Shown: piece by piece, positions 3,186-25,535 of the stretch
Layout of the letters: each line of letters starts with the position of its first letter
Position numbering within the stretch: position 1 is the first letter of the stretch
From: an uncultured delta proteobacterium
Lineage (GTDB): Bacteria; Desulfobacterota; Binatia; Binatales; Binataceae
Reading direction: 5' to 3'
Length of the DNA: 64,000 nucleotides
Assembly (NCBI GenBank): GCA_963794325.1
Contig: CAWCDG010000009.1
Coordinates: 1 to 64,000 of the forward strand
Notes under the pieces: model-generated
What the model was told of the DNA's origin: nothing
What the model saw: the letters and a program-made list of their open reading frames with translations, nothing else
The model's database searches: none
Made by a program: the position numbers and the translations under genes

Positions 3186-4046
3186 CTATCGGGCCCAGCG
3201 ATGCTGGCGCTGAAGAGGAATACGACGCGGGCCGGTCGTCGCGAGCTGAAAGCTTGTCGCCGGTGCGTGACCATTCGAGCTGTGAGAAGAAGCTCCGCTA
3301 ACCGCGGCTTCAATCGCTCCGCCGTGCAGCAAGACGTATTTCCGATCGCGCCGCTCGATTTCTCCATCCTCGGTCAGCTCTGTCATTACCCGCCCGACCA
3401 CCGGCCGCGAGCTTCCGATCATTTCCGCCAGATCGGAATGCGTGGGCTCGAACGTGAGCAAAATTCCGTCGCCGTCGGGGATGCCAAACTTGCGGCCCAG
3501 TTCCGCCATCACCATTTCGATACGCTCGCGATATGACAGGCCGAGGAAGGTCGCGTAGTACTGAATCCATTCGGTGGCCGCCGAATTCATCCGCTCCGAC
3601 AGCATCAGCAGTTCGTCCGGGGTCATCTGTCTCAGCAGATTGCGCACGTGGTCGCGGGTGACGACCGCGAGCACACACGGGCCCGCCGCCCACGCCTCGA
3701 AGCGTCGAACCCATTGACCCTTGTCGTCGAGCTTGTCGGCCAGACCCAGAACGTCGCCCGCGGTTGCCAGCCTCACCAGTGTTTGGGTGCCTTTCGGATT
3801 AGGGCAGATTTCGCGCACCACGCCTTTGACGATCCACATCACGATATCGGCCGGAGAACCCTGGCTGAAAATCAGCTTGCCCGCCGAGTAGTTGAGCTCG
3901 GTGTGGTGCTGGGTCAATTCGCGCGCGGTCTCCTCGGGAATCCCCCACGAGAAGAGGCCGGCCTCGAACACGTTGGCCCGGTTGAGCACCGAGAACCCAT
4001 TCATCTTCGATTCCGGCAAGGTTGCCTCCGCTGTTTTCGTTTTCAT
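3186..4046 (-). CDS. Crp/Fnr family transcriptional regulator (paralog of 2005..2808)
   Basis: IFSQGSPAD...VKGVVR, HTH HSDLAEMIGSSRPVVGR; shares VRLATAGDV and KGQW.RRFEA with its neighbour. Confidence 0.88.
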   Translation of the reverse strand: MKTKTAEATLPESKMNGFSVLNRANVFEAGLFSWGIPEETARELTQHHTELNYSAGKLIFSQGSPADIVMWIVKGVVREICPNPKGTQTLVRLATAGDVLGLADKLDDKGQWVRRFEAWAAGPCVLAVVTRDHVRNLLRQMTPDELLMLSERMNSAATEWIQYYATFLGLSYRERIEMVMAELGRKFGIPDGDGILLTFEPTHSDLAEMIGSSRPVVGRVMTELTEDGEIERRDRKYVLLHGGAIEAAVSGASSHSSNGHAPATSFQLATTGPRRIPLQRQHRWAR

Positions 4047-5907
4047 CGAGTTCGTCCGCGTTGAGTGTTAGAAAATAAGGCAGCCCGGGGTCCCCCGCTC
4101 AAGTGGCCGGTACCTCGTCCCCCGACAGCGCTCAGCCAATTCCGCGGCCGGCCGCCTGAGGGAACATCAGCAAAGGGCATGCCCAAATGAGCGCGATCGT
4201 TCGATTGGATCACAGAAACGGCGCAACCTCGCGTTACTTGGGCGAAATCTTGCTCAGTCGATAGAGGGGCGGGATTCATTTCGCAGGATTGGCGGCCATT
4301 TACATGGAGATTGCCGCGAGTCTTGGGTCAAAATTCCCAATCGTTCGGAGTCATTGTTCCGCAATTCCTGTCTTTCGCGATGCGGCCGGCTTTAGGCGGA
4401 ACGCAGCGGAATGGCATATAACTGGCGGGGGATTTGTTTCGTGCCGCGCATTGGAAGGGAGCACAACTCGTGAAAATCGGCACCCGGCTTACAGTAGTTC
4501 TGATGCTGTGCGTGATGCCGATACTGGCCGCGTACACGTACTGGAGCGTCGAGCACTCCAACGCTTACGTAAACCTGTTGAGGCAATCGGCGCGCGCCTT
4601 CGGCTCCGGCCTGGCCCCTGCGGTCAGCGATGAAGTCGCCGCGCAAGAGTGGAACAAAATCGACGAGGCCTTCCGCGAGATGGATGCCGCTGGAACGCAG
4701 AGCGCGCTGCTTCGAAAAGACGGCACCCTTTGGCACTCGAACCCGGACTTCCCCGCTGAACTTGTCGAAATGGCCCGAGCGCAACTCGCTCAAGCCAAGG
4801 CCGCTGAATTCGAGCCCAGCGCGGACGCGAGGAACTGGTTCTGCGAATTGGTCCCGCTCAAGGGTAGCGACGGCGAGGTCATTGGCTATCTGCTCGAAGT
4901 CCAGGACTGGACCAAGGTAGCGCGCGACAACCGCGCGAACTTTATCGCGACGTTGCTGGTTGCGATTCTCCTGCTGGGTGTGGTCGCCACGGTCATACCG
5001 CTTTCGGTGAATCGCTACGTCTCGCGGCCGCTGGCCGATCTATCGGCCAAGGTCACGAAGTTTTCGGTGGCCGATTCCGATCTCGCCGCAGGCAGCGAAG
5101 TGGAGTTGCTCACCGAGGAATTCCGCAAGCTCGATCAGCAACTCGACCGGGCGCGCACCGATCTCCAGGATCGGCATCGGCGCGAATTGGAACTCGAGCG
5201 TGAGCTGCTGCGCGCGGATCGGCTGGCTACCATCGGCACCCTGGCCGCCGGCCTGGCGCACGAGATCGGCACGCCGATGGGCGTCATACGAGCGCGCGCG
5301 GAGTCGCTGCAAGAGGACGCGACTATTTCGGCCGACTCGCGCGTAAAACTCGGCATCATCGTCCGTCAGATAGATCGGATCGCGCGGATCGTCCGGATGC
5401 TCCTCGATTACGCGCGCAAGAGCGAATCGCACAAGGCGACTTGCGACCTGCGAACCATTGCCGAACGCGCACTGACGCTCCTGGAGCCGGAAGCCGCGCT
5501 GCGCAGCGTTAGAACGATCGCGCGACTCGGCGACAGTCCGCTGATGGTCAATTGCGACGCCGATCAGTTCGAGCAGGTCTTCGTCAACATGATCATGAAC
5601 GCGTTCGACGCGATGAATCGCGGCGGCGGAACGCTGCGCGTGACCGCCGACACGGAACACAACAGCGGCGGCTCACGCGTGATGCTCGCGTTCGAGGATA
5701 CCGGCGTGGGCGTCGCTCCCGAAGACGAGGATCGCCTCTTCGCGCCGTTCTTCACCACCAAGGAACCGGGCAAGGGCACCGGCATGGGTCTCGCCGTGAG
5801 CCAGTCTATAGCTCGTGAGCACGGCGGCGAGATAACCTTCAGCTCGAACCAGTCGGGGTCGCGATTCGTCGTCGCGATTCCGATGGCATCAAGCGAGATG
5901 GTCGAAG

Positions 5908-18918: not shown

Positions 18919-19857
18919 GTGCCGCATCTCGACACATCCGATCGCCCCAATGTGGGCGTCCTCCCCCTCGACGCGCGGATCATTGTCCGCGTGACCGGTG
19001 ACGATCGCGCGTCGTTTCTTCATGGGATGTGCACCGCTGACGTGAACGGCGCCCGCCCCGGAACGATCCTGCCGGCGCTGTTTCTCACCGAGCATGCGCA
19101 CGTGATTTCCGAAGCGTTCATCTGGGTGACGTCTGATTCGCTGCTGCTCGACATCGACGCCGAAGCATGGACGCGCACACATGCGCATCTGGAAAAATTG
19201 CTGGTCGCCGACGATGTCGAATTCGAAGATGCCGCCGATCTCGCGATCATAGACGTCGAAGGACCGGCCGCCCTCGACGCTACCGGCGCGACGCAGCTCG
19301 CTGAGTGGAGCTTCAAGGTCGTCGGCGAGTCGCTGGTCGGCAACCTGCCTCGCTTCGGGGGACCGGCGGCGTCTGTGATCGCACCGCGCGATTCGATCGA
19401 TTCGACCATCGCATCAGTTCTCGCGAAGGCCCCCGGAGCGCGCCGCATCGATTCCTCGATACTAAACAGCATCCGCGTCGAAAATGGTGTCGCACTGGTC
19501 GGCGTCGATACCAGCGACAAGACGATCGCGCTCGAAGCGCGTCTCAATCGCTCGATCTCCTCTAATAAGGGATGCTATCTCGGGCAGGAAACGATCGAGC
19601 GCGCGACTGCTCGCGGCGGTTTGAAAAAACGGATGTTCGGACTTAAGTTCAATATTGCGACTGCCCCGGCGACCGGCTCGGTCCTGAGTCTCGACGGCAA
19701 GGAAATCGGCCGGGTGACGAGCGCCGTAATCTCGCCGCGCTTCGGCGCGATCGGGCTTGCGATTCTGCATCACAGCGCATGGACGCCCGGGATGCAGCTG
19801 AAAGTGGGCGAGGGCGGCTCTGCAACAGTGATGGAGTTGCCGTTTGCGCAGAATTGA
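18919..19857 (+). CDS. ygfZ: YgfZ/GcvT family folate-binding protein
   Basis: KGCYLGQE signature; VTGDDRASFLHG. Confidence 0.9.
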   Translation: MPHLDTSDRPNVGVLPLDARIIVRVTGDDRASFLHGMCTADVNGARPGTILPALFLTEHAHVISEAFIWVTSDSLLLDIDAEAWTRTHAHLEKLLVADDVEFEDAADLAIIDVEGPAALDATGATQLAEWSFKVVGESLVGNLPRFGGPAASVIAPRDSIDSTIASVLAKAPGARRIDSSILNSIRVENGVALVGVDTSDKTIALEARLNRSISSNKGCYLGQETIERATARGGLKKRMFGLKFNIATAPATGSVLSLDGKEIGRVTSAVISPRFGAIGLAILHHSAWTPGMQLKVGEGGSATVMELPFAQN

Positions 19858-19924
19858 CGAGTTGATGCGATACTTTAAGTTTATTTTATCGGCCCACAGG
19901 GTCGAATTTTGAAGGAGTTCATCG

Positions 19925-20068
19925 ATGGCTAACGTGCTCGGTAAGCGTTACATGTGCGAAAAGTGCGGCACTGAGGTGCTCTGCAACAAGGCTGGCACCG
20001 GCCCGCTCGAGTGTTGCGACATCGAGATGAAAATCAAGGAAGCGAAGCCGCTTCCAAGTTCCGATTAG
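19925..20068 (+). CDS. 47-aa desulforedoxin-like metal-binding protein with KPLPSSD tail, not in ORF track
   Basis: MANVLGKRYMCEKCGTEVLCNKAGTGPLECCDIEMKIKEAKPLPSSD; CxxC-x15-CC; GAAGGAG RBS. Confidence 0.88.
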   Translation: MANVLGKRYMCEKCGTEVLCNKAGTGPLECCDIEMKIKEAKPLPSSD

Positions 20069-20086
20069 TACCTCACGCCGCCGCGA

Positions 20087-21679
20087 TTGGTCGCTGGCGA
20101 CGAAGGCATTCGTTCCAAAGTGGTAGCCGCGTCCGGGAAAGCTGACCTGGTTCTGCACGAGGGTATTATCCTCGGTCATCCGGGCAGCGACTCGGTGGCA
20201 ATCTCCGGTGGCTTGATCGCCGCGCTCGGTCCGTTCGCGGATCTGAAACCGTTCGTCGGTCCGCAAACTCATCTGATCAAGCTGGCCGGCCGCGTCGTCG
20301 CCCCCGGCCTGATCGATTCACACATCCATTTTCGCGAGGCCGCCGCCGCCGCAACCGGAATCTCGGTTCAGCGATGCCGCACGGTTGGCGATGTGCTCGC
20401 GGACCTGCGCCTCGCCAGTGGCAAGGCTCCGCCCGGCAACTGGCTGCGCGCATTCGGATGCGACGAAGCGCTGATGCTGGAAAAGCGCGGGCCGACGCGC
20501 GCCGAGCTCGATCACTCGACGCCTAAAAATCCGCTGCGCCTGCGCCATCAGACGCTCCACGCCACCTGGCTCAACTCGCGCGCGATCGCGCTGCTCGGTC
20601 TCGAGGCGCCCGACTTCACGCCGCCCTACGGCGCCAACATGATTCGCGACGCCGCCGGCAAGCTCACTGGCCTGCTGGTCGGAATGGAAACGTGGCTGTC
20701 GGATCATCTGCCGCCGGTGACCGCCGCGGAATCCGAATCGCGCGCGCGTATCATGAGCCGCGAGATGGCTGGCAACGGAGTCACCGCGTTCACCGACGCC
20801 ACCACGCGCAACGGCCCGGTCGAAGTCGAGCAGTTCGCAAAGCTCGTGCAGTCGAATGCGATATGCCAGCGCGTCGCGCTGATGATCGGCGGCCAGCATC
20901 TCGACCTCATCGATCGATGCGATCAGATTGCCCGCGCCGCGAAGATCTCGCTGGCCGGCGCGAAGTTCATGCCCGGTTATCAATACGATCCCGCAGGCCT
21001 TTCGCGCCCCGTCCGTCGTGCACTCGAACGCGGACTGGATTGTGCGTTTCACGTCACCGAACTCGAAGAGCTGGAAGAGGCGCTCGCGGCTATCGAAGCC
21101 GCCAAGGCAAAATTCGCGGGCGCGCACGAGATGCCGAAGTTCCGCATCGAGCACGGCGGTCTCATCACGCCCGACTACATCGACCGCCTGATGGCCGCCA
21201 ACGTGTGGGTCGTGACCAACCCCGGCTTCATTTATTTCCGCGGCGCCAAGTACAGTGACGAGCCCGGGCTCCTCGCGCATCTATATCGCGCGCGCAGTCT
21301 CAAGGACGCCAACGTCCACCTGGCCGGCGCGACCGACGCGCCGGTCACGCCCGCGCGGCCGCTCACGGCGATCGCGGCCGCGGTTACGCGCACCACGATC
21401 GACGGCGTCCAGCTTGCGCCCGCCGAAGCGCTCTCGATGCCCGATGCGTTCGCGCTTTTCACCACCGAAGCCGCGCGCCTCGCGCGTCTCGACGCCGGCG
21501 CCATCGCAGTCGATCGGCTGGCCGATCTGATCGTGCTGCCGCGCGATCCTTTCGCGATGAAACCCGCCGACCTGATGAACCTCACCGTCGATATCACGAT
21601 CGTCGCCGGCCGCGTGGTGTACGAGCGCGGCCGCCCCGCAATCGCCAGCAGCGACAGCGCCGACCTGCGCTCCACGTAA
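20087..21679 (+). CDS. amidohydrolase family 3 (YtcJ-like)
   Basis: PGLIDSHIH, FRIEHG, ATDAPVT, ADLIVL, IVAGRVVY; start uncertain. Confidence 0.85.
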   Translation: MVAGDEGIRSKVVAASGKADLVLHEGIILGHPGSDSVAISGGLIAALGPFADLKPFVGPQTHLIKLAGRVVAPGLIDSHIHFREAAAAATGISVQRCRTVGDVLADLRLASGKAPPGNWLRAFGCDEALMLEKRGPTRAELDHSTPKNPLRLRHQTLHATWLNSRAIALLGLEAPDFTPPYGANMIRDAAGKLTGLLVGMETWLSDHLPPVTAAESESRARIMSREMAGNGVTAFTDATTRNGPVEVEQFAKLVQSNAICQRVALMIGGQHLDLIDRCDQIARAAKISLAGAKFMPGYQYDPAGLSRPVRRALERGLDCAFHVTELEELEEALAAIEAAKAKFAGAHEMPKFRIEHGGLITPDYIDRLMAANVWVVTNPGFIYFRGAKYSDEPGLLAHLYRARSLKDANVHLAGATDAPVTPARPLTAIAAAVTRTTIDGVQLAPAEALSMPDAFALFTTEAARLARLDAGAIAVDRLADLIVLPRDPFAMKPADLMNLTVDITIVAGRVVYERGRPAIASSDSADLRST

Positions 21680-22410
21680 TGTCGTCGAAGTCGAACGGTT
21701 CGAGCGCGGTGCTCTACGAAAAGCGCGGCCCCGTCGCGTGGGTCACGCTGAATCGCCCCGCGCAATTCAACGCCTACAACATGGCGATGCGCGACGCATT
21801 GTTTCAAATCCTCGCCGCCATCCACGACGATCGCGAGGTTCGCGCGATGGTGCTGCGCGGCGCCGGCCAGGCCTTCTCGACCGGCGGCGATCTCGCCGAA
21901 TTCGGGATGGCGCCGTCGCCAATCGTCGCGCGATGGGTCCGCTTTCGCCGCGACGTGTGGGGGATGCTCCGCGCGTTGCCGATACCGACTATCGCGGCCA
22001 TCCACGGTTACACGGTTGGCGGCGGTCTCGAGATGGCTCTGCTCTGCGACTTCGCAATCGCCGCCGACGACACCCGCCTGTCACTGCCCGAGACCGGCGC
22101 CGGCATGATTCCCGGCGTCGCCGGAACGCAGACCGCCGCGCGCCGCCTCGGCCTCGGCCGCGCGCTCGACCTTTGCCTCACCGGCCGTTGGATTGACGCC
22201 CAAGACGCGTTACTTTCAGGTATGGTCGCCGAAGTGGTCCCCCTGGCCGACTTGGATCGCCGCGCTCTCACGATCGCGCGTGAATTTGCACGCGTCAGCC
22301 GCGAGCGGTCCGCGATACTGAAGCTGGCGGTCTGGGGAGGCCTCGATTTGCCGTTGCGACAAGGACTCGAACTCGAACGTCGGCTCTGGAAGAGAGGAAG
22401 CGCGCTGTGA
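21679..22410 (+). CDS. enoyl-CoA hydratase/isomerase
   Basis: TLNRP, FSTGGDL, GGGLEMALLCD, LPETGAG; start overlaps upstream stop. Confidence 0.9.
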   Translation: MSSKSNGSSAVLYEKRGPVAWVTLNRPAQFNAYNMAMRDALFQILAAIHDDREVRAMVLRGAGQAFSTGGDLAEFGMAPSPIVARWVRFRRDVWGMLRALPIPTIAAIHGYTVGGGLEMALLCDFAIAADDTRLSLPETGAGMIPGVAGTQTAARRLGLGRALDLCLTGRWIDAQDALLSGMVAEVVPLADLDRRALTIAREFARVSRERSAILKLAVWGGLDLPLRQGLELERRLWKRGSAL

Positions 22411-23954
22411 ACACCGTCAACTTCGTCACGATCCCTGCTTCGATCGTGCCCGACCAGGAAATCCTGGTTTTCGGCGCGCGACGTCTCACCTACGCGGATC
22501 TGAACGACCAGGTCGCCCGCCTCTGCGCGGTATTCAAGCAGTTCGGCCTCGCGCACGGCGACGTCATTGCAGTCCTGGACACCAACTCTGATCTCTACAT
22601 CGAATGCTATTACGCCGCGGCCAAGGCCGGGCTCACATTCCTGCCGCTCAACTATCGCGCCAAGGATGCCGAGCTCGAGTACATGATCAACACCGCGGAT
22701 GCGAAAGCGTTGCTGGTCGGCGATCGCTATCTCGAATTGATCGCGAAGATTCAGCCGCGGTTGCGCGCCAGCAAAATCGTGGCGCTCGGCGATGGCGCCA
22801 AGGGATTGCCGCGCCTCGCCGACCTGGTCGCGAAGGCGGAGCCCGATGAATCCGAAGCGGAAGTCGAAGACGAGGACATCTCGATCCTCATGTACACGAG
22901 CGGGACTACGTCGCTGCCCAAAGGCGTCCAGCTTCGCTTCCGCGATTTCGCCGCGTACGTGACCGCCAACGTCGAGATGGCCGACGGCACCGACCGCGGC
23001 GTCGCGCTGGTGTGCGTGCCCTTTTACCACATCGCGGGAACCACGGCGTACATGACCAACACCTGGACCGGCCGCAAGCTGATCATAATGCCGCAGTTCG
23101 ACGCCAAGGCATGGCTCGATCTCGTCGCGCGCGAGCACGTCACGCACGCCTTCGTCGTGCCCACGATGATGAAGCAGATCATCGACGAGCCTGCGTTCGC
23201 GAAAACCGATCTCTCGACGCTGACCAACCTCGCCTACGGCGGCGCTGCGATGCCGGTACAGGTGATTCGTCGCGCGATTGAAGTCTTCCCGAAGAAAGTC
23301 GGCTTCGTGAACGCCTACGGCCAGACTGAAACGACGTCATCGTTGACCGTGCTCGGTCCCGACGATCACCGGATCGAGGGGACGCCTGAAGAGGTCGAAC
23401 TCAAGCTCAAACGCCTCAACTCAATTGGCAAGCCGCTCCCCGACGTCGAAATCCGCGTCCGCGACGAAGACGGCAAGTTCCTGCCGCACGGCCAGGTCGG
23501 CGAAATAATTATCCGCACCCCGCGCATCATGAAGGGCTATGCCGGCCGCGACGATGACGCGCGACTGCCCGACGGATGGCGCGCGACCGGCGACCTCGGA
23601 TGGCTCGACGACGACGGCTACGTTTTCTTCGCGGGCCGCAAGGACGACATGATCATCCGCGGCGGCGAAAATATCGCGCCAGCTGAAATCGAAACCGTCC
23701 TGATGAGCCATCCGGCCGTTGACGAATGCGCTGTTATTGGCGTTCCTTCGGTCGAATGGGGGCAAATCGTCAAGGCCTTCGTCTGTGTGCGCAAGGGCGC
23801 CAAGGTGAGCGAGTCTGAGCTCGAGGATTTTTGCCGGTCGCGGCTTGCGAGCTTCAAGCGCCCCGAGCGTATCGAGTTCATCGACGCGCTACCGAAAAAT
23901 CCGCTCGGCAAAATTCTGCGCAAAGATTTGCGCGCACCCGCTGGAGGCGTCTGA
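22407..23954 (+). CDS. AMP-dependent acyl-CoA synthetase (class I adenylate-forming)
   Basis: YTSGTTSLPKG, YGQTET, TGDLG, GRKDDMIIRGGENI, LPKNPLGK. Confidence 0.93.
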   Translation: MNTVNFVTIPASIVPDQEILVFGARRLTYADLNDQVARLCAVFKQFGLAHGDVIAVLDTNSDLYIECYYAAAKAGLTFLPLNYRAKDAELEYMINTADAKALLVGDRYLELIAKIQPRLRASKIVALGDGAKGLPRLADLVAKAEPDESEAEVEDEDISILMYTSGTTSLPKGVQLRFRDFAAYVTANVEMADGTDRGVALVCVPFYHIAGTTAYMTNTWTGRKLIIMPQFDAKAWLDLVAREHVTHAFVVPTMMKQIIDEPAFAKTDLSTLTNLAYGGAAMPVQVIRRAIEVFPKKVGFVNAYGQTETTSSLTVLGPDDHRIEGTPEEVELKLKRLNSIGKPLPDVEIRVRDEDGKFLPHGQVGEIIIRTPRIMKGYAGRDDDARLPDGWRATGDLGWLDDDGYVFFAGRKDDMIIRGGENIAPAEIETVLMSHPAVDECAVIGVPSVEWGQIVKAFVCVRKGAKVSESELEDFCRSRLASFKRPERIEFIDALPKNPLGKILRKDLRAPAGGV

Positions 23955-24001
23955 CGCCGCGCCTCGCCAAAAAATCCCGGCCGCATCGCGCCGCTCGCAA
24001 C

Positions 24002-24739
24002 GTGCCCGCCGGCGCGATCGATGTTTCTTTCGCCAGTGGATGCGTGACCGCGGCGCTTCATTACTCCGGCTCGCGCGCGATTCTCACCCCGGCGATGGCC
24101 GTCCGGCTGCTCGAACTGTTCGAGCACGTCGAGGACGACGACGCTGCTCGCATGCTCGCGCTCACCGGCGCCGGCAACTCGTTCTGCATCGGCTTCGACG
24201 ACGCAGTCGATCCGCGCCTCGTCGAATCGCTTGCCGTGCTCTCGAAGCCCACCGTCGCGATCATCAACGGCGACGCGTTCGACGAAGGCCTCGAGCTTGC
24301 GATGGCCGCCGACATACGCGTTGCAATTTCGTCCGCTCATTTCGCGATCACGCAAGTGAAGAGCGGAACGATGCCCCATTTCGGCGCGACCCAGCGACTC
24401 CCACGCCTCATCGGCGCCGCCAACGCACTGCGCCTGATGCTCACCGGAACGGCTCTGGGAGCCGACGACGCGATGCGCGCCGGCCTCGTTACGTATCTCG
24501 CCGACAGCCCGGGCGACCTCGCCGCCACCAGCGGCCGCGTCGCCGAGGCTATCCTGAGCCGCGCTCCGCTCGCCGCGCGCCTGGTCAAGGACGCGGTCCT
24601 GAAGGGCTACGACATGACTTTGGACCAGGGCATCAGGCTTGAGGAGGATCTGTACGCCCTGCTACAAACGAGTTCCGACCGCGCCGAAGGCGTCCGCGCA
24701 TTTTTGGAGAAGCGCAAACCGCTCTTCCGAGGCGCGTGA
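24002..24739 (+). CDS. crotonase-family protein, degenerate active site
   Basis: GLELAMAADIR, GATQRLPRLIG, EGVRAFLEKRKP; start uncertain (GTG 24002). Confidence 0.85.
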   Translation: MPAGAIDVSFASGCVTAALHYSGSRAILTPAMAVRLLELFEHVEDDDAARMLALTGAGNSFCIGFDDAVDPRLVESLAVLSKPTVAIINGDAFDEGLELAMAADIRVAISSAHFAITQVKSGTMPHFGATQRLPRLIGAANALRLMLTGTALGADDAMRAGLVTYLADSPGDLAATSGRVAEAILSRAPLAARLVKDAVLKGYDMTLDQGIRLEEDLYALLQTSSDRAEGVRAFLEKRKPLFRGA

Positions 24740-24790
24740 ATCTCGGCGCAAACTTAGCGACAAATAATCCGAAAGGACCAGGACCCACGA

Positions 24791-24910
24791 ATGGCAAATC
24801 AGCTCGGCAAAGTTTATATCTGCGGTAACTGCAAATCGCAGGTCATCGTCACCAAAGGCGGCGCCGGCCAGCTCAAGTGCTGCGGCGCTCCGATGGAACA
24901 AAAAAAGTAG
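24791..24910 (+). CDS. 39-aa desulforedoxin-like protein, not in ORF track
   Basis: MANQLGKVYICGNCKSQVIVTKGGAGQLKCCGAPMEQKK; CxxC-x15-CC; AGGA upstream. Confidence 0.88.
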   Translation: MANQLGKVYICGNCKSQVIVTKGGAGQLKCCGAPMEQKK

Positions 24911-24964
24911 CGATCACCCGCGCTGTTCCTGGCGCTATCGCGACAACTGAACTGAGGTCCCCAA

Positions 24965-25189
24965 ATGATTGCTGCGATCATAGTCGGAATAATTGCAGGC
25001 TTTCTGGCCGGCAAGATCATGGATGGCTCGGGCTTCGGAGTGATCGGCGATCTGCTGCTCGGCCTGGTCGGCGGCCTCATCGGCGGCGCGATCTTCGGTT
25101 CACCGAACGGCATGATCGGCGCGATTGCCGTCGCCACGATCGGCGCGGTGATCCTGGTGTGGATCTCGCACATGATTAAGCGCGTCTAG
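24965..25189 (+). CDS. GlsB/YeaQ/YmgE family membrane protein
   Basis: GIIAGFLAGKIM...G.IGDLLLGLVG...ATIGA. Confidence 0.88.
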   Translation: MIAAIIVGIIAGFLAGKIMDGSGFGVIGDLLLGLVGGLIGGAIFGSPNGMIGAIAVATIGAVILVWISHMIKRV

Positions 25190-25301
25190 GGAAACGGTTT
25201 GCGCGGGCGGAATTCCCAGCCGCTCGCGCGGATGGAGCAAAAAAAGTAGCGGTCACGCTGTGCCGCTCTAGCGCTATTGCGACAACCAGGAGGACCACAC
25301 G

Positions 25302-25535
25302 ATGCTCTATGCGATCCTAGTCGGAATAGTCGCGGGCTGGCTCGCCGGCAAGCTGGTGCGCGGCGCAGGCTTCGGACTAATCGGCGACCTGATCCTCGGC
25401 CTGATCGGTGGCTTCGTCGGCGCATGGATCTTCGGCGCCCTCGGAATTCATGGACCCGACGGCGCGATAGGCGCGATCCTCGTCGCGACCGTCGGCGCCG
25501 TCGTGCTGGTCTGGATCTCGCACGTTATTCTATAG
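25302..25535 (+). CDS. GlsB/YeaQ/YmgE family membrane protein (tandem paralog)
   Basis: GIVAGWLAGKLV...IGDLILGLIG...ATVGA; AGGAGG RBS. Confidence 0.88.
   Translation: MLYAILVGIVAGWLAGKLVRGAGFGLIGDLILGLIGGFVGAWIFGALGIHGPDGAIGAILVATVGAVVLVWISHVIL

Follow-up and report, generated by a model that had tools for sequence, protein, structure and literature searches.

A desulforedoxin-fold mini-protein with a conserved C-terminal tail as a putative partner of an acyl-CoA ligase subfamily

Background

The acyl-CoA ligases of the ANL (class I adenylate-forming) type belong to the most intensively studied and engineered enzymes. To our knowledge, a CoA ligase that stands alone is considered to need no helper, and the MbtH-like proteins, which are small activators or chaperones, have been described only for the adenylation domains of NRPS systems. 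LysW is the amino-group carrier protein of the lysine and arginine pathways of Thermus and archaea and has an acidic end of the EDWGE type. The desulforedoxin (Dx) of Desulfovibrio gigas (1cfw; PF06397, TIGR00319) is a homodimer in its solved structure, and its type of domain is redox-active and holds iron in a distorted Fe(Cys)4 centre. Excerpts of one report describe LvaB of Pseudomonas putida as a 12-kDa hypothetical protein that belongs to the levulinate operon and pulls down with the kinase LvaA (PMC6692424).

The window analyzed here is a stretch of 64,000 nucleotides from an uncultured member of the Binataceae, and it encodes two desulforedoxin-like mini-proteins, one tailed and one short, on either side of a block of enzyme genes that includes an ANL ligase. 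Like the MbtH-like proteins, the mini-protein is small (about 5-11 kDa), has no catalytic residues and is encoded beside, and co-inherited with, an ANL enzyme; unlike them it has an unrelated, all-beta fold, and its partner is of the stand-alone acyl-CoA-ligase type rather than an NRPS module. With LysW it shares a tiny metal-knuckle globule, a flexible tail and an invariant acidic last residue, but its tail closes with P-x-S-D and not with the EDWGE-type end of LysW, its ligase is an ANL enzyme and not an ATP-grasp enzyme of the LysX/ArgX type, no hydrolase is constant beside it, and the pathway enzymes nearby are CoA-dependent. The tailed protein has the cysteine pattern and the fold of Dx, whose homodimer fits both the split-pair and the fused pseudo-dimer forms of the mini-protein family. 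Compared with Dx, the tailed protein adds a conserved tail of nine residues, a fifth cysteine and a non-identical second gene, most of its fused relatives are without metal ligands, and its genomic partner is a CoA ligase rather than the genes of oxygen defence or sulfate reduction.

LvaB, as the excerpts present it, resembles the mini-protein in being a small uncharacterised helper in an acyl-CoA catabolic operon with a CoA ligase (PMC6692424). A kinase context of the LvaA/LvaB type, in the form of an APH-type gene, was found in 3 of 11 plasmid contexts of the mini-protein and in 0 of 80 metagenome loci; the kinase context is not supported, and LvaB is listed here as no more than a possible relative of the family.

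Results and discussion

The tailed mini-gene and its gene block

The features of the window are collected in Table 1. The tailed mini-protein has four cysteines, C11, C14, C30 and C31, in the spacing C-x2-C-x15-C-C, and a fifth, C20, in the stretch VLCNK; GKRY occupies residues 6-9, and the sequence after the knuckle reads ...KIKEAKPLPSSD. The initial annotation had pointed out that only this first mini-protein carries an extra tail and a fifth cysteine, and this is correct, the short twin having VIVTK at the equivalent place and ending in PMEQKK. A word-based search returned 126 short-protein homologues of the tailed mini-protein, sized 25-83 aa and mostly from Candidatus Binataceae MAGs. Because of these homologues, and because the codons of the tail have drifted almost only synonymously (see below), we regard the 47-codon reading frame as a genuine gene and not a chance ORF. 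The genome of the window was searched for further mini-protein copies beyond the tailed and the short one and none was found, and a promoter and terminator scan gave nothing above the shuffled expectation.

The amidohydrolase start lies 19 nt past the stop codon of the tailed gene and the ligase follows 2.3 kb downstream in the same operon, which is the more exact sense of the initial annotation's placing of the mini-gene next to a ligase. The nearest solved relative of the amidohydrolase is 3icj, an 'uncharacterized metal-dependent hydrolase' (E 3e-17). The listed ORF of ECH2 overlaps the ligase, so that its true start is probably further downstream. A Pfam scan detected no oxidoreductase in the window's own cluster, and no ATP-grasp domain was present in the nine proteins scanned from 18919 to 25535. 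Right after the short mini-gene there are two tandem genes (24965-25189 and 25302-25535) for small Transgly_assoc membrane proteins of the GlsB/YeaQ/YmgE type. The YgfZ/GcvT-like gene was found upstream in all 80 Binataceae-type loci (the best 80 of the contig search) and was absent from the other contexts examined. Relatives of YgfZ are linked to the maintenance of Fe-S clusters, and the position of such a gene beside that of a Cys4 metalloprotein is intriguing.

Table 1. Features of the window around the tailed mini-gene (positions in the window)
Feature	Position	Strand	Basis and remarks
YgfZ/GcvT-like folate-binding protein	18919..19857	+	PF01571, PF08669; directly upstream of the tailed mini-gene
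Shine-Dalgarno-like AAGGAG	19912..19917	+	7-nt spacer to the start codon (ATG) of the tailed mini-gene
Tailed mini-gene	19925..20068	+	ORF listing; ATG start; 47 aa plus stop
Tail EAKPLPSSD, residues 39-47	20039..20065	+	Sequence, model; outside the Dx fold
Amidohydro_3 metal-dependent hydrolase	20087..21679	+	PF07969 221 bits; 530 aa from a TTG start
ECH1, enoyl-CoA hydratase/isomerase family	21679..22410	+	PF00378 166 bits
ANL (class I adenylate-forming) acyl-CoA ligase	22407..23954	+	PF00501, PF13193; NF004837 (PRK06187) 479 bits, cut-off 476
Ligase loop insertion, residues about 318-338	23358..23420	+	Alignment of partnered ligases vs paralogues
ECH2, second enoyl-CoA hydratase family protein	23831..24739	+	PF00378 132 bits, match from residue 86
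Short desulforedoxin-like mini-gene, 39 aa	24791..24910	+	PF06397 31.8 bits; 46% identical to the tailed protein

Conservation of the tail

The suggestion that the end of the tail might be invariant among homologues was borne out by the alignments. A C-terminal x-[S/A/T/G/K]-[S/T/A]-D is present in 266 of 277 family proteins (SSD in 224, ASD in 34 and others in 8), and of the 120 homologues listed out of 126, 113 have SSD as their last three residues, 2 have TSD or ASD, and the other 5 are apparently frameshifted or extended. S45, S46 and D47 are invariant in the 90 split-form tailed sequences. At the nucleotide level, 67 distinct orthologous genes of 141 nt show synonymous changes throughout codons 38-47, with six codons in use at S45, six at L43 and four at P44, and the sole amino-acid change in these codons is that of P42 to A in 7 genes. 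Synonymous drift combined with fixed amino acids means that the tail peptide is under purifying selection.

An alignment of 21 sequences, 18 split and 3 fused, has G6, K7, R8, Y9, L19, K22, K41, S45, S46 and D47 as invariant residues, and the four metal cysteines are not among them. Only three residues are invariant across 109 fused forms: the arginine of GKRY, a glycine and the terminal Asp. No residue in the whole mini-protein family is more conserved than this Asp. K22, K41 and C20 are each substituted in some fused members, C20 being Val in many of them; none of the three can therefore be an obligatory attachment site, and only the terminal Asp could be one.

A family of split and fused forms

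We searched 401 genomes of the phylum in six frames and found matches in 56 of them, with the tailed type in about 21. Outside Binatia, 11 genomes have the short and the tailed gene side by side, the short one first, with a gap of 5-190 nt; in Binatia-type genomes the two lie 3.5-5 kb apart and bracket the enzyme genes. Three further genomes encode one fused chain of 102-126 aa that has lost most of the metal cysteines and has kept LGKRY, L[C/V]xK and the tail. A profile search of 1.84 billion representatives returned 1291 clusters (50% identity) with E <= 1e-3, of which 589 reach E <= 1e-10. Among the 150 top-ranking matches most are the fused form of about 100 aa, in the same order of short half followed by tailed half, and the fused form occurs in hundreds of clusters, from Rhodococcus, Mycobacterium, Streptomyces and sphingomonads. 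In the majority of fused forms the four metal cysteines are gone whereas GKRY and the tail are retained, and intermediates that are fused with all cysteines still present also exist (P0134, P0137 and P0148). The tailed protein and the short one are thus the halves of a single unit.

Two arrangements depart from the usual ones. The 122-aa metagenome protein P0139 has its halves in reverse, the tailed-like one first and the short-like one last; it is hydrophobic in a stretch near the N-terminus and does not end in SSD. Locus L036 contains three mini-genes (1737-1856, 3741-3998 and 4187-4327), an extra short copy standing 24 nt past a ligase, followed by an opposite-strand CoA_trans pair and then by the usual short and tailed pair.

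The curated families hold no Pfam or NCBIfam model for these proteins beyond the sub-threshold Dx match of the split forms, and a Pfam scan of one fused form assigned it to no family. The nearest clusters in the ESM Atlas are 'hypothetical protein' only, without a common Pfam family, and the source names of the family clusters are likewise all 'hypothetical protein'. Literature searches, including searches for the tail motif PLPSSD and for desulforedoxin together with enoyl-CoA hydratase, found no description of the tailed or the fused protein; for 'desulforedoxin-like' proteins the papers listed were two on oxygen tolerance in Clostridioides difficile.

Fold and metal site

The metal knuckle recognized in the initial annotation is more exactly of the desulforedoxin type. 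The short twin scores above the Pfam cut-off against PF06397 (Desulfoferrod_N), and the tailed protein, at 20.3 bits, falls below the cut-off of 23. The nearest solved sequence relatives of the mini-proteins are desulfoferrodoxin and desulforedoxin (E 0.013-0.049), and the aligned desulfoferrodoxin chains have the same cysteine spacing. An AlphaFold2 model of the tailed protein, built with 90 natural sequences, has a pLDDT of 77.5, and of 61 across the last residues. It superposes on desulforedoxin 1cfw_A with Z 5.2 and an rmsd of 1.1 A over 36/36 residues at 36% identity, the next row of the comparison being at Z 3.0. From this superposition we assign residues 3-38 to a Dx domain and residues 39-47 to an appendage.

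The model of the fused form is all-beta and has a pLDDT of 95.3 and a pTM of 0.85. Foldseek returned no match for it in the PDB at E <= 1e-3; a wider structure search matched its C-terminal half to 1cfw_A (Z 3.4, rmsd 1.4 A, 36/36 residues). Since half of the fused form again matches desulforedoxin, the split pair is most simply read as a heterodimer equivalent to the fused pseudo-dimer.

All four metal cysteines are invariant in the split forms, 90 tailed and 56 short, and for this reason a metal or redox aspect is possible in the lineage of the window. The conserved function of the family as a whole cannot be Fe(Cys)4 redox chemistry, because most fused members have lost these cysteines. The working surface of the partner would be GKRY together with the flexible, free-Asp tail, rather than the metal site.

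Genomic neighbours across lineages

The Binataceae-type set comprises the best 80 matches of the contig search, all of them close Binataceae relatives, and it informs on synteny and not on breadth. The order YgfZ, tailed gene, amidohydrolase, ECH, ligase, ECH, short gene is found in 61 of these loci, the other 19 being truncated contigs, and the ligase is present in 61/61 complete loci. The eight other Desulfobacterota-type loci have the order ECH, ECH, ligase, short gene, tailed gene, followed by a gene for an NMO-type flavoprotein or an alpha/beta hydrolase and with a CoA-transferase III gene nearby, and in 6/8 the ligase is immediately upstream of the short and tailed pair. At L044 and L045 a fused gene is followed directly by a ligase that is 37-38% identical to that of the window, and L046 has no ligase. 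At L035 a two-subunit CoA_trans stands in the place of the ligase. We considered this pair as proof that the ligase only makes a CoA ester and rejected the argument, because CoA_trans-family pairs may be hydrolases, the ring-opening hydrolase IpdAB being such a case.

Searches by tblastn located the fused form on 18-19 plasmids of Rhodococcus, Streptomyces, Sphingobium, Sphingomonas and Mycobacterium. Of the 11 annotated plasmid contexts that we opened, 10 have a gene for an adenylate-forming enzyme as the immediate same-strand neighbour, the exception being R. gordoniae. Of the 80 metagenome loci, 55 have a ligase gene on the same strand no more than 250 nt away; among the 38 loci with 600 nt or more of sequence to either side the number is 32. 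The other neighbours in the 80 metagenome loci are ECH (35), CaiB-type (27), amidohydrolase (16), thiolase (7) and APH kinase (0) genes. The amidohydrolase is thus not a constant neighbour (16/80 metagenome loci and 3/11 plasmid contexts). The members of the family that lack a nearby ligase are L035, L046, the plasmid hit H18 and, among the 38 metagenome loci with long flanks, another 6. The APH-type phosphotransferase genes that occur near the fused mini-gene in 3 of the 11 plasmid contexts are at 1375-2463 of L135 (an R. opacus plasmid), at 13770-15140 of L128 and from 4354 of L136.

Long proteins that contain the domain number 26 and are mostly singletons, and their additional regions match AMP-binding (5), CaiB (3), P450 (2), Amidohydro_3 (2) or no family (9), with one each for a phosphotriesterase-like protein, a ferredoxin, a thiolase, PF07681 and PF06742. 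Since these partners are varied and many of the long proteins are probably read-through gene calls, we consider the fusions weak evidence for the ligase. The putative fusion P0327 (602 aa), from a Mycobacterium isolate, has ligase and mini-protein in one frame. Two other putative fusions are P0155 (234 aa), a gene call in which the fused mini-protein is in frame with a 2Fe-2S ferredoxin-like domain, and P0321 (423 aa), a gene call with a phosphotriesterase-like hydrolase in frame, an arrangement seen in 7 sequences from 5 contigs. The fusions of P0121 and P0130 to Amidohydro_3 are apparently frameshifted gene calls and were left out as evidence.

The partnered ligases

The ligases that accompany the mini-protein are 36-41% identical to that of the window across phyla, including Actinomycetota and Alphaproteobacteria, whereas the full-length ligase paralogues of the window's own genome reach at most 30% identity to it; one 228-aa fragment in that genome is 42% identical to the C-terminal third of the ligase. 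For 10/10 partnered ligases the top-scoring NCBIfam model is NF004837 (PRK06187). An insertion of 14-16 residues with the pattern LGP[E/D]DHR...RL, located between motifs A5 and A6, is present in 11/11 partnered ligases from four phyla and in 0/3 paralogues from the window genome, and in the nearest solved sequences the A5-A6 loop is 8-10 residues shorter than in the partnered ligases. The partnered ligases are, as judged from these alignments and gene positions, a co-inherited group that tracks the mini-protein.

The best full-length solved relatives of the window ligase are feruloyl-CoA synthetase and FadD13, and its C-terminal Lys motif is intact. The closest solved sequences for the A5-A6 stretch are 8ppp and 6sq8, which are amide-bond synthetases. 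The product of the ligase is most likely an acyl-CoA, because the neighbouring enzymes act on CoA thioesters and the C-terminal Lys motif is the usual one. A complex prediction for the tailed protein, the short protein and the ligase, with the ligase scored as the partner and run without controls, gave ipSAE values of 0.02 and 0.14 (mark, 0.32), which speaks neither for nor against binding.

Possible functions of the mini-protein

The explanation that we favor, with confidence balanced about evenly between acceptance and doubt, is that the two-part unit of Dx fold is a dedicated non-catalytic partner of one PRK06187-like subfamily of ANL acyl-CoA ligases, following an MbtH-like logic with a different fold. 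The ligase would activate a carboxylic acid to its CoA thioester, feeding the neighbouring hydratases. The tail, with GKRY, would dock on the ligase, possibly at the insertion between A5 and A6 that marks the subfamily, and the docking may stabilise, activate or gate the enzyme, as MbtH-like proteins do for NRPS adenylation domains. An MbtH-like role had been raised in the initial annotation. What survives of it is the small partner of an adenylate-forming enzyme, tied to that enzyme in several phyla; kinship with MbtH itself does not, as the MbtH model PF03621 gave no match at E <= 0.01 and the fold is that of desulforedoxin. Taken in this loose sense, an MbtH-like role is the best current reading because the tail is invariant and because of the genetic tie to the adenylating enzyme in several phyla.

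Some members of the family have no ligase nearby, so that the partner may act for the pathway and not for the ligase as such. It could be an adaptor or regulator that bridges the ligase to the CoA-transferase, the hydratase or the amidohydrolase, or that senses a metabolite, a metal or the redox state, with the tail docking on some other partner. We rate this as unlikely, at perhaps half the weight of a ligase partner, while noting that the ligase-less members L035, L046 and H18 keep the tail, that ECH and CaiB genes recur in the metagenome loci (35/80 and 27/80), that the phosphotriesterase-like fusion is seen on several contigs, and that the Binataceae have all of the enzyme genes enclosed between the two halves. 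A general role of this kind has to be set against the observation that no other neighbour comes near the ligase in frequency or in direct same-strand adjacency, and that a subfamily signature tracking the mini-protein was found only in the ligase.

A ligase partner also has to be weighed against a carrier of the LysW type, the other role suggested at the outset, in which the ligase would load a substrate on the tail (at the Asp carboxylate, a Ser or a Lys), other enzymes would modify it and the amidohydrolase would release it. The anatomy is analogous, a small metal-knuckle domain with a flexible tail and an invariant acidic last residue, and the genetic link to an adenylate-forming enzyme is tight. 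The amidohydrolase gene begins 19 nt past the tailed gene, amidohydrolase-superfamily genes recur nearby (16/80 loci) and also in the long gene calls P0317 and P0321, and the A5-A6 stretch is closest to the amide-bond synthetases 8ppp and 6sq8. Against this, no LysW family model appears among the Pfam and NCBIfam hits at E <= 0.01, the ligase is of the ordinary ANL CoA-ligase type with an intact C-terminal Lys motif and not of the ATP-grasp type, the neighbouring ECH, CaiB, ACAD and thiolase enzymes all act on CoA thioesters and make the pathway CoA-dependent, and no release enzyme is constant across the family. The carrier proposal is consequently not supported, and we think it very improbable. 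We give similarly little credence to the terminal Asp being a chemical participant, whether the ANL ligase were to adenylate or acylate the C-terminus of the protein or to employ that terminus as a tethered acid or a leaving group. If true, it would be the first case of an ANL-class enzyme serving a carrier borne on a protein, a load-modify-release cycle in the style of LysW assembled from unrelated parts, and such a carrier cycle would have spread through Actinomycetota, Pseudomonadota and Desulfobacterota-type bacteria.

The poorest account is an ordinary redox-active desulforedoxin pair shuttling electrons to a flavoenzyme of the cluster, which agrees with the sequence and fold match to desulforedoxin, with the four invariant cysteines of the split forms and with the NMO-type flavoprotein or ferredoxin genes of some clusters, but which we find barely credible in view of the many fused members without metal cysteines that have GKRY and the tail, and of a window cluster in which no oxidoreductase was detected.

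Conclusions

The tailed mini-protein is a member of an undescribed family of small proteins that is nearly always encoded beside one kind of acyl-CoA ligase. The family is large (1291 clusters) and unnamed, and it is co-inherited with one ligase subfamily in catabolic gene clusters of Rhodococcus, Mycobacterium, Streptomyces, sphingomonads and uncultured soil Binataceae. The invariant tail with its free Asp offers a sharp and cheap experimental handle. If the mini-protein is an obligate partner, the heterologous expression of partnered ligases may fail without it, and annotation pipelines would be missing a subunit, many of the 40-47-codon genes not even being called. A redox metalloprotein fold would, in that case, have been recruited as a metal-free structural module.
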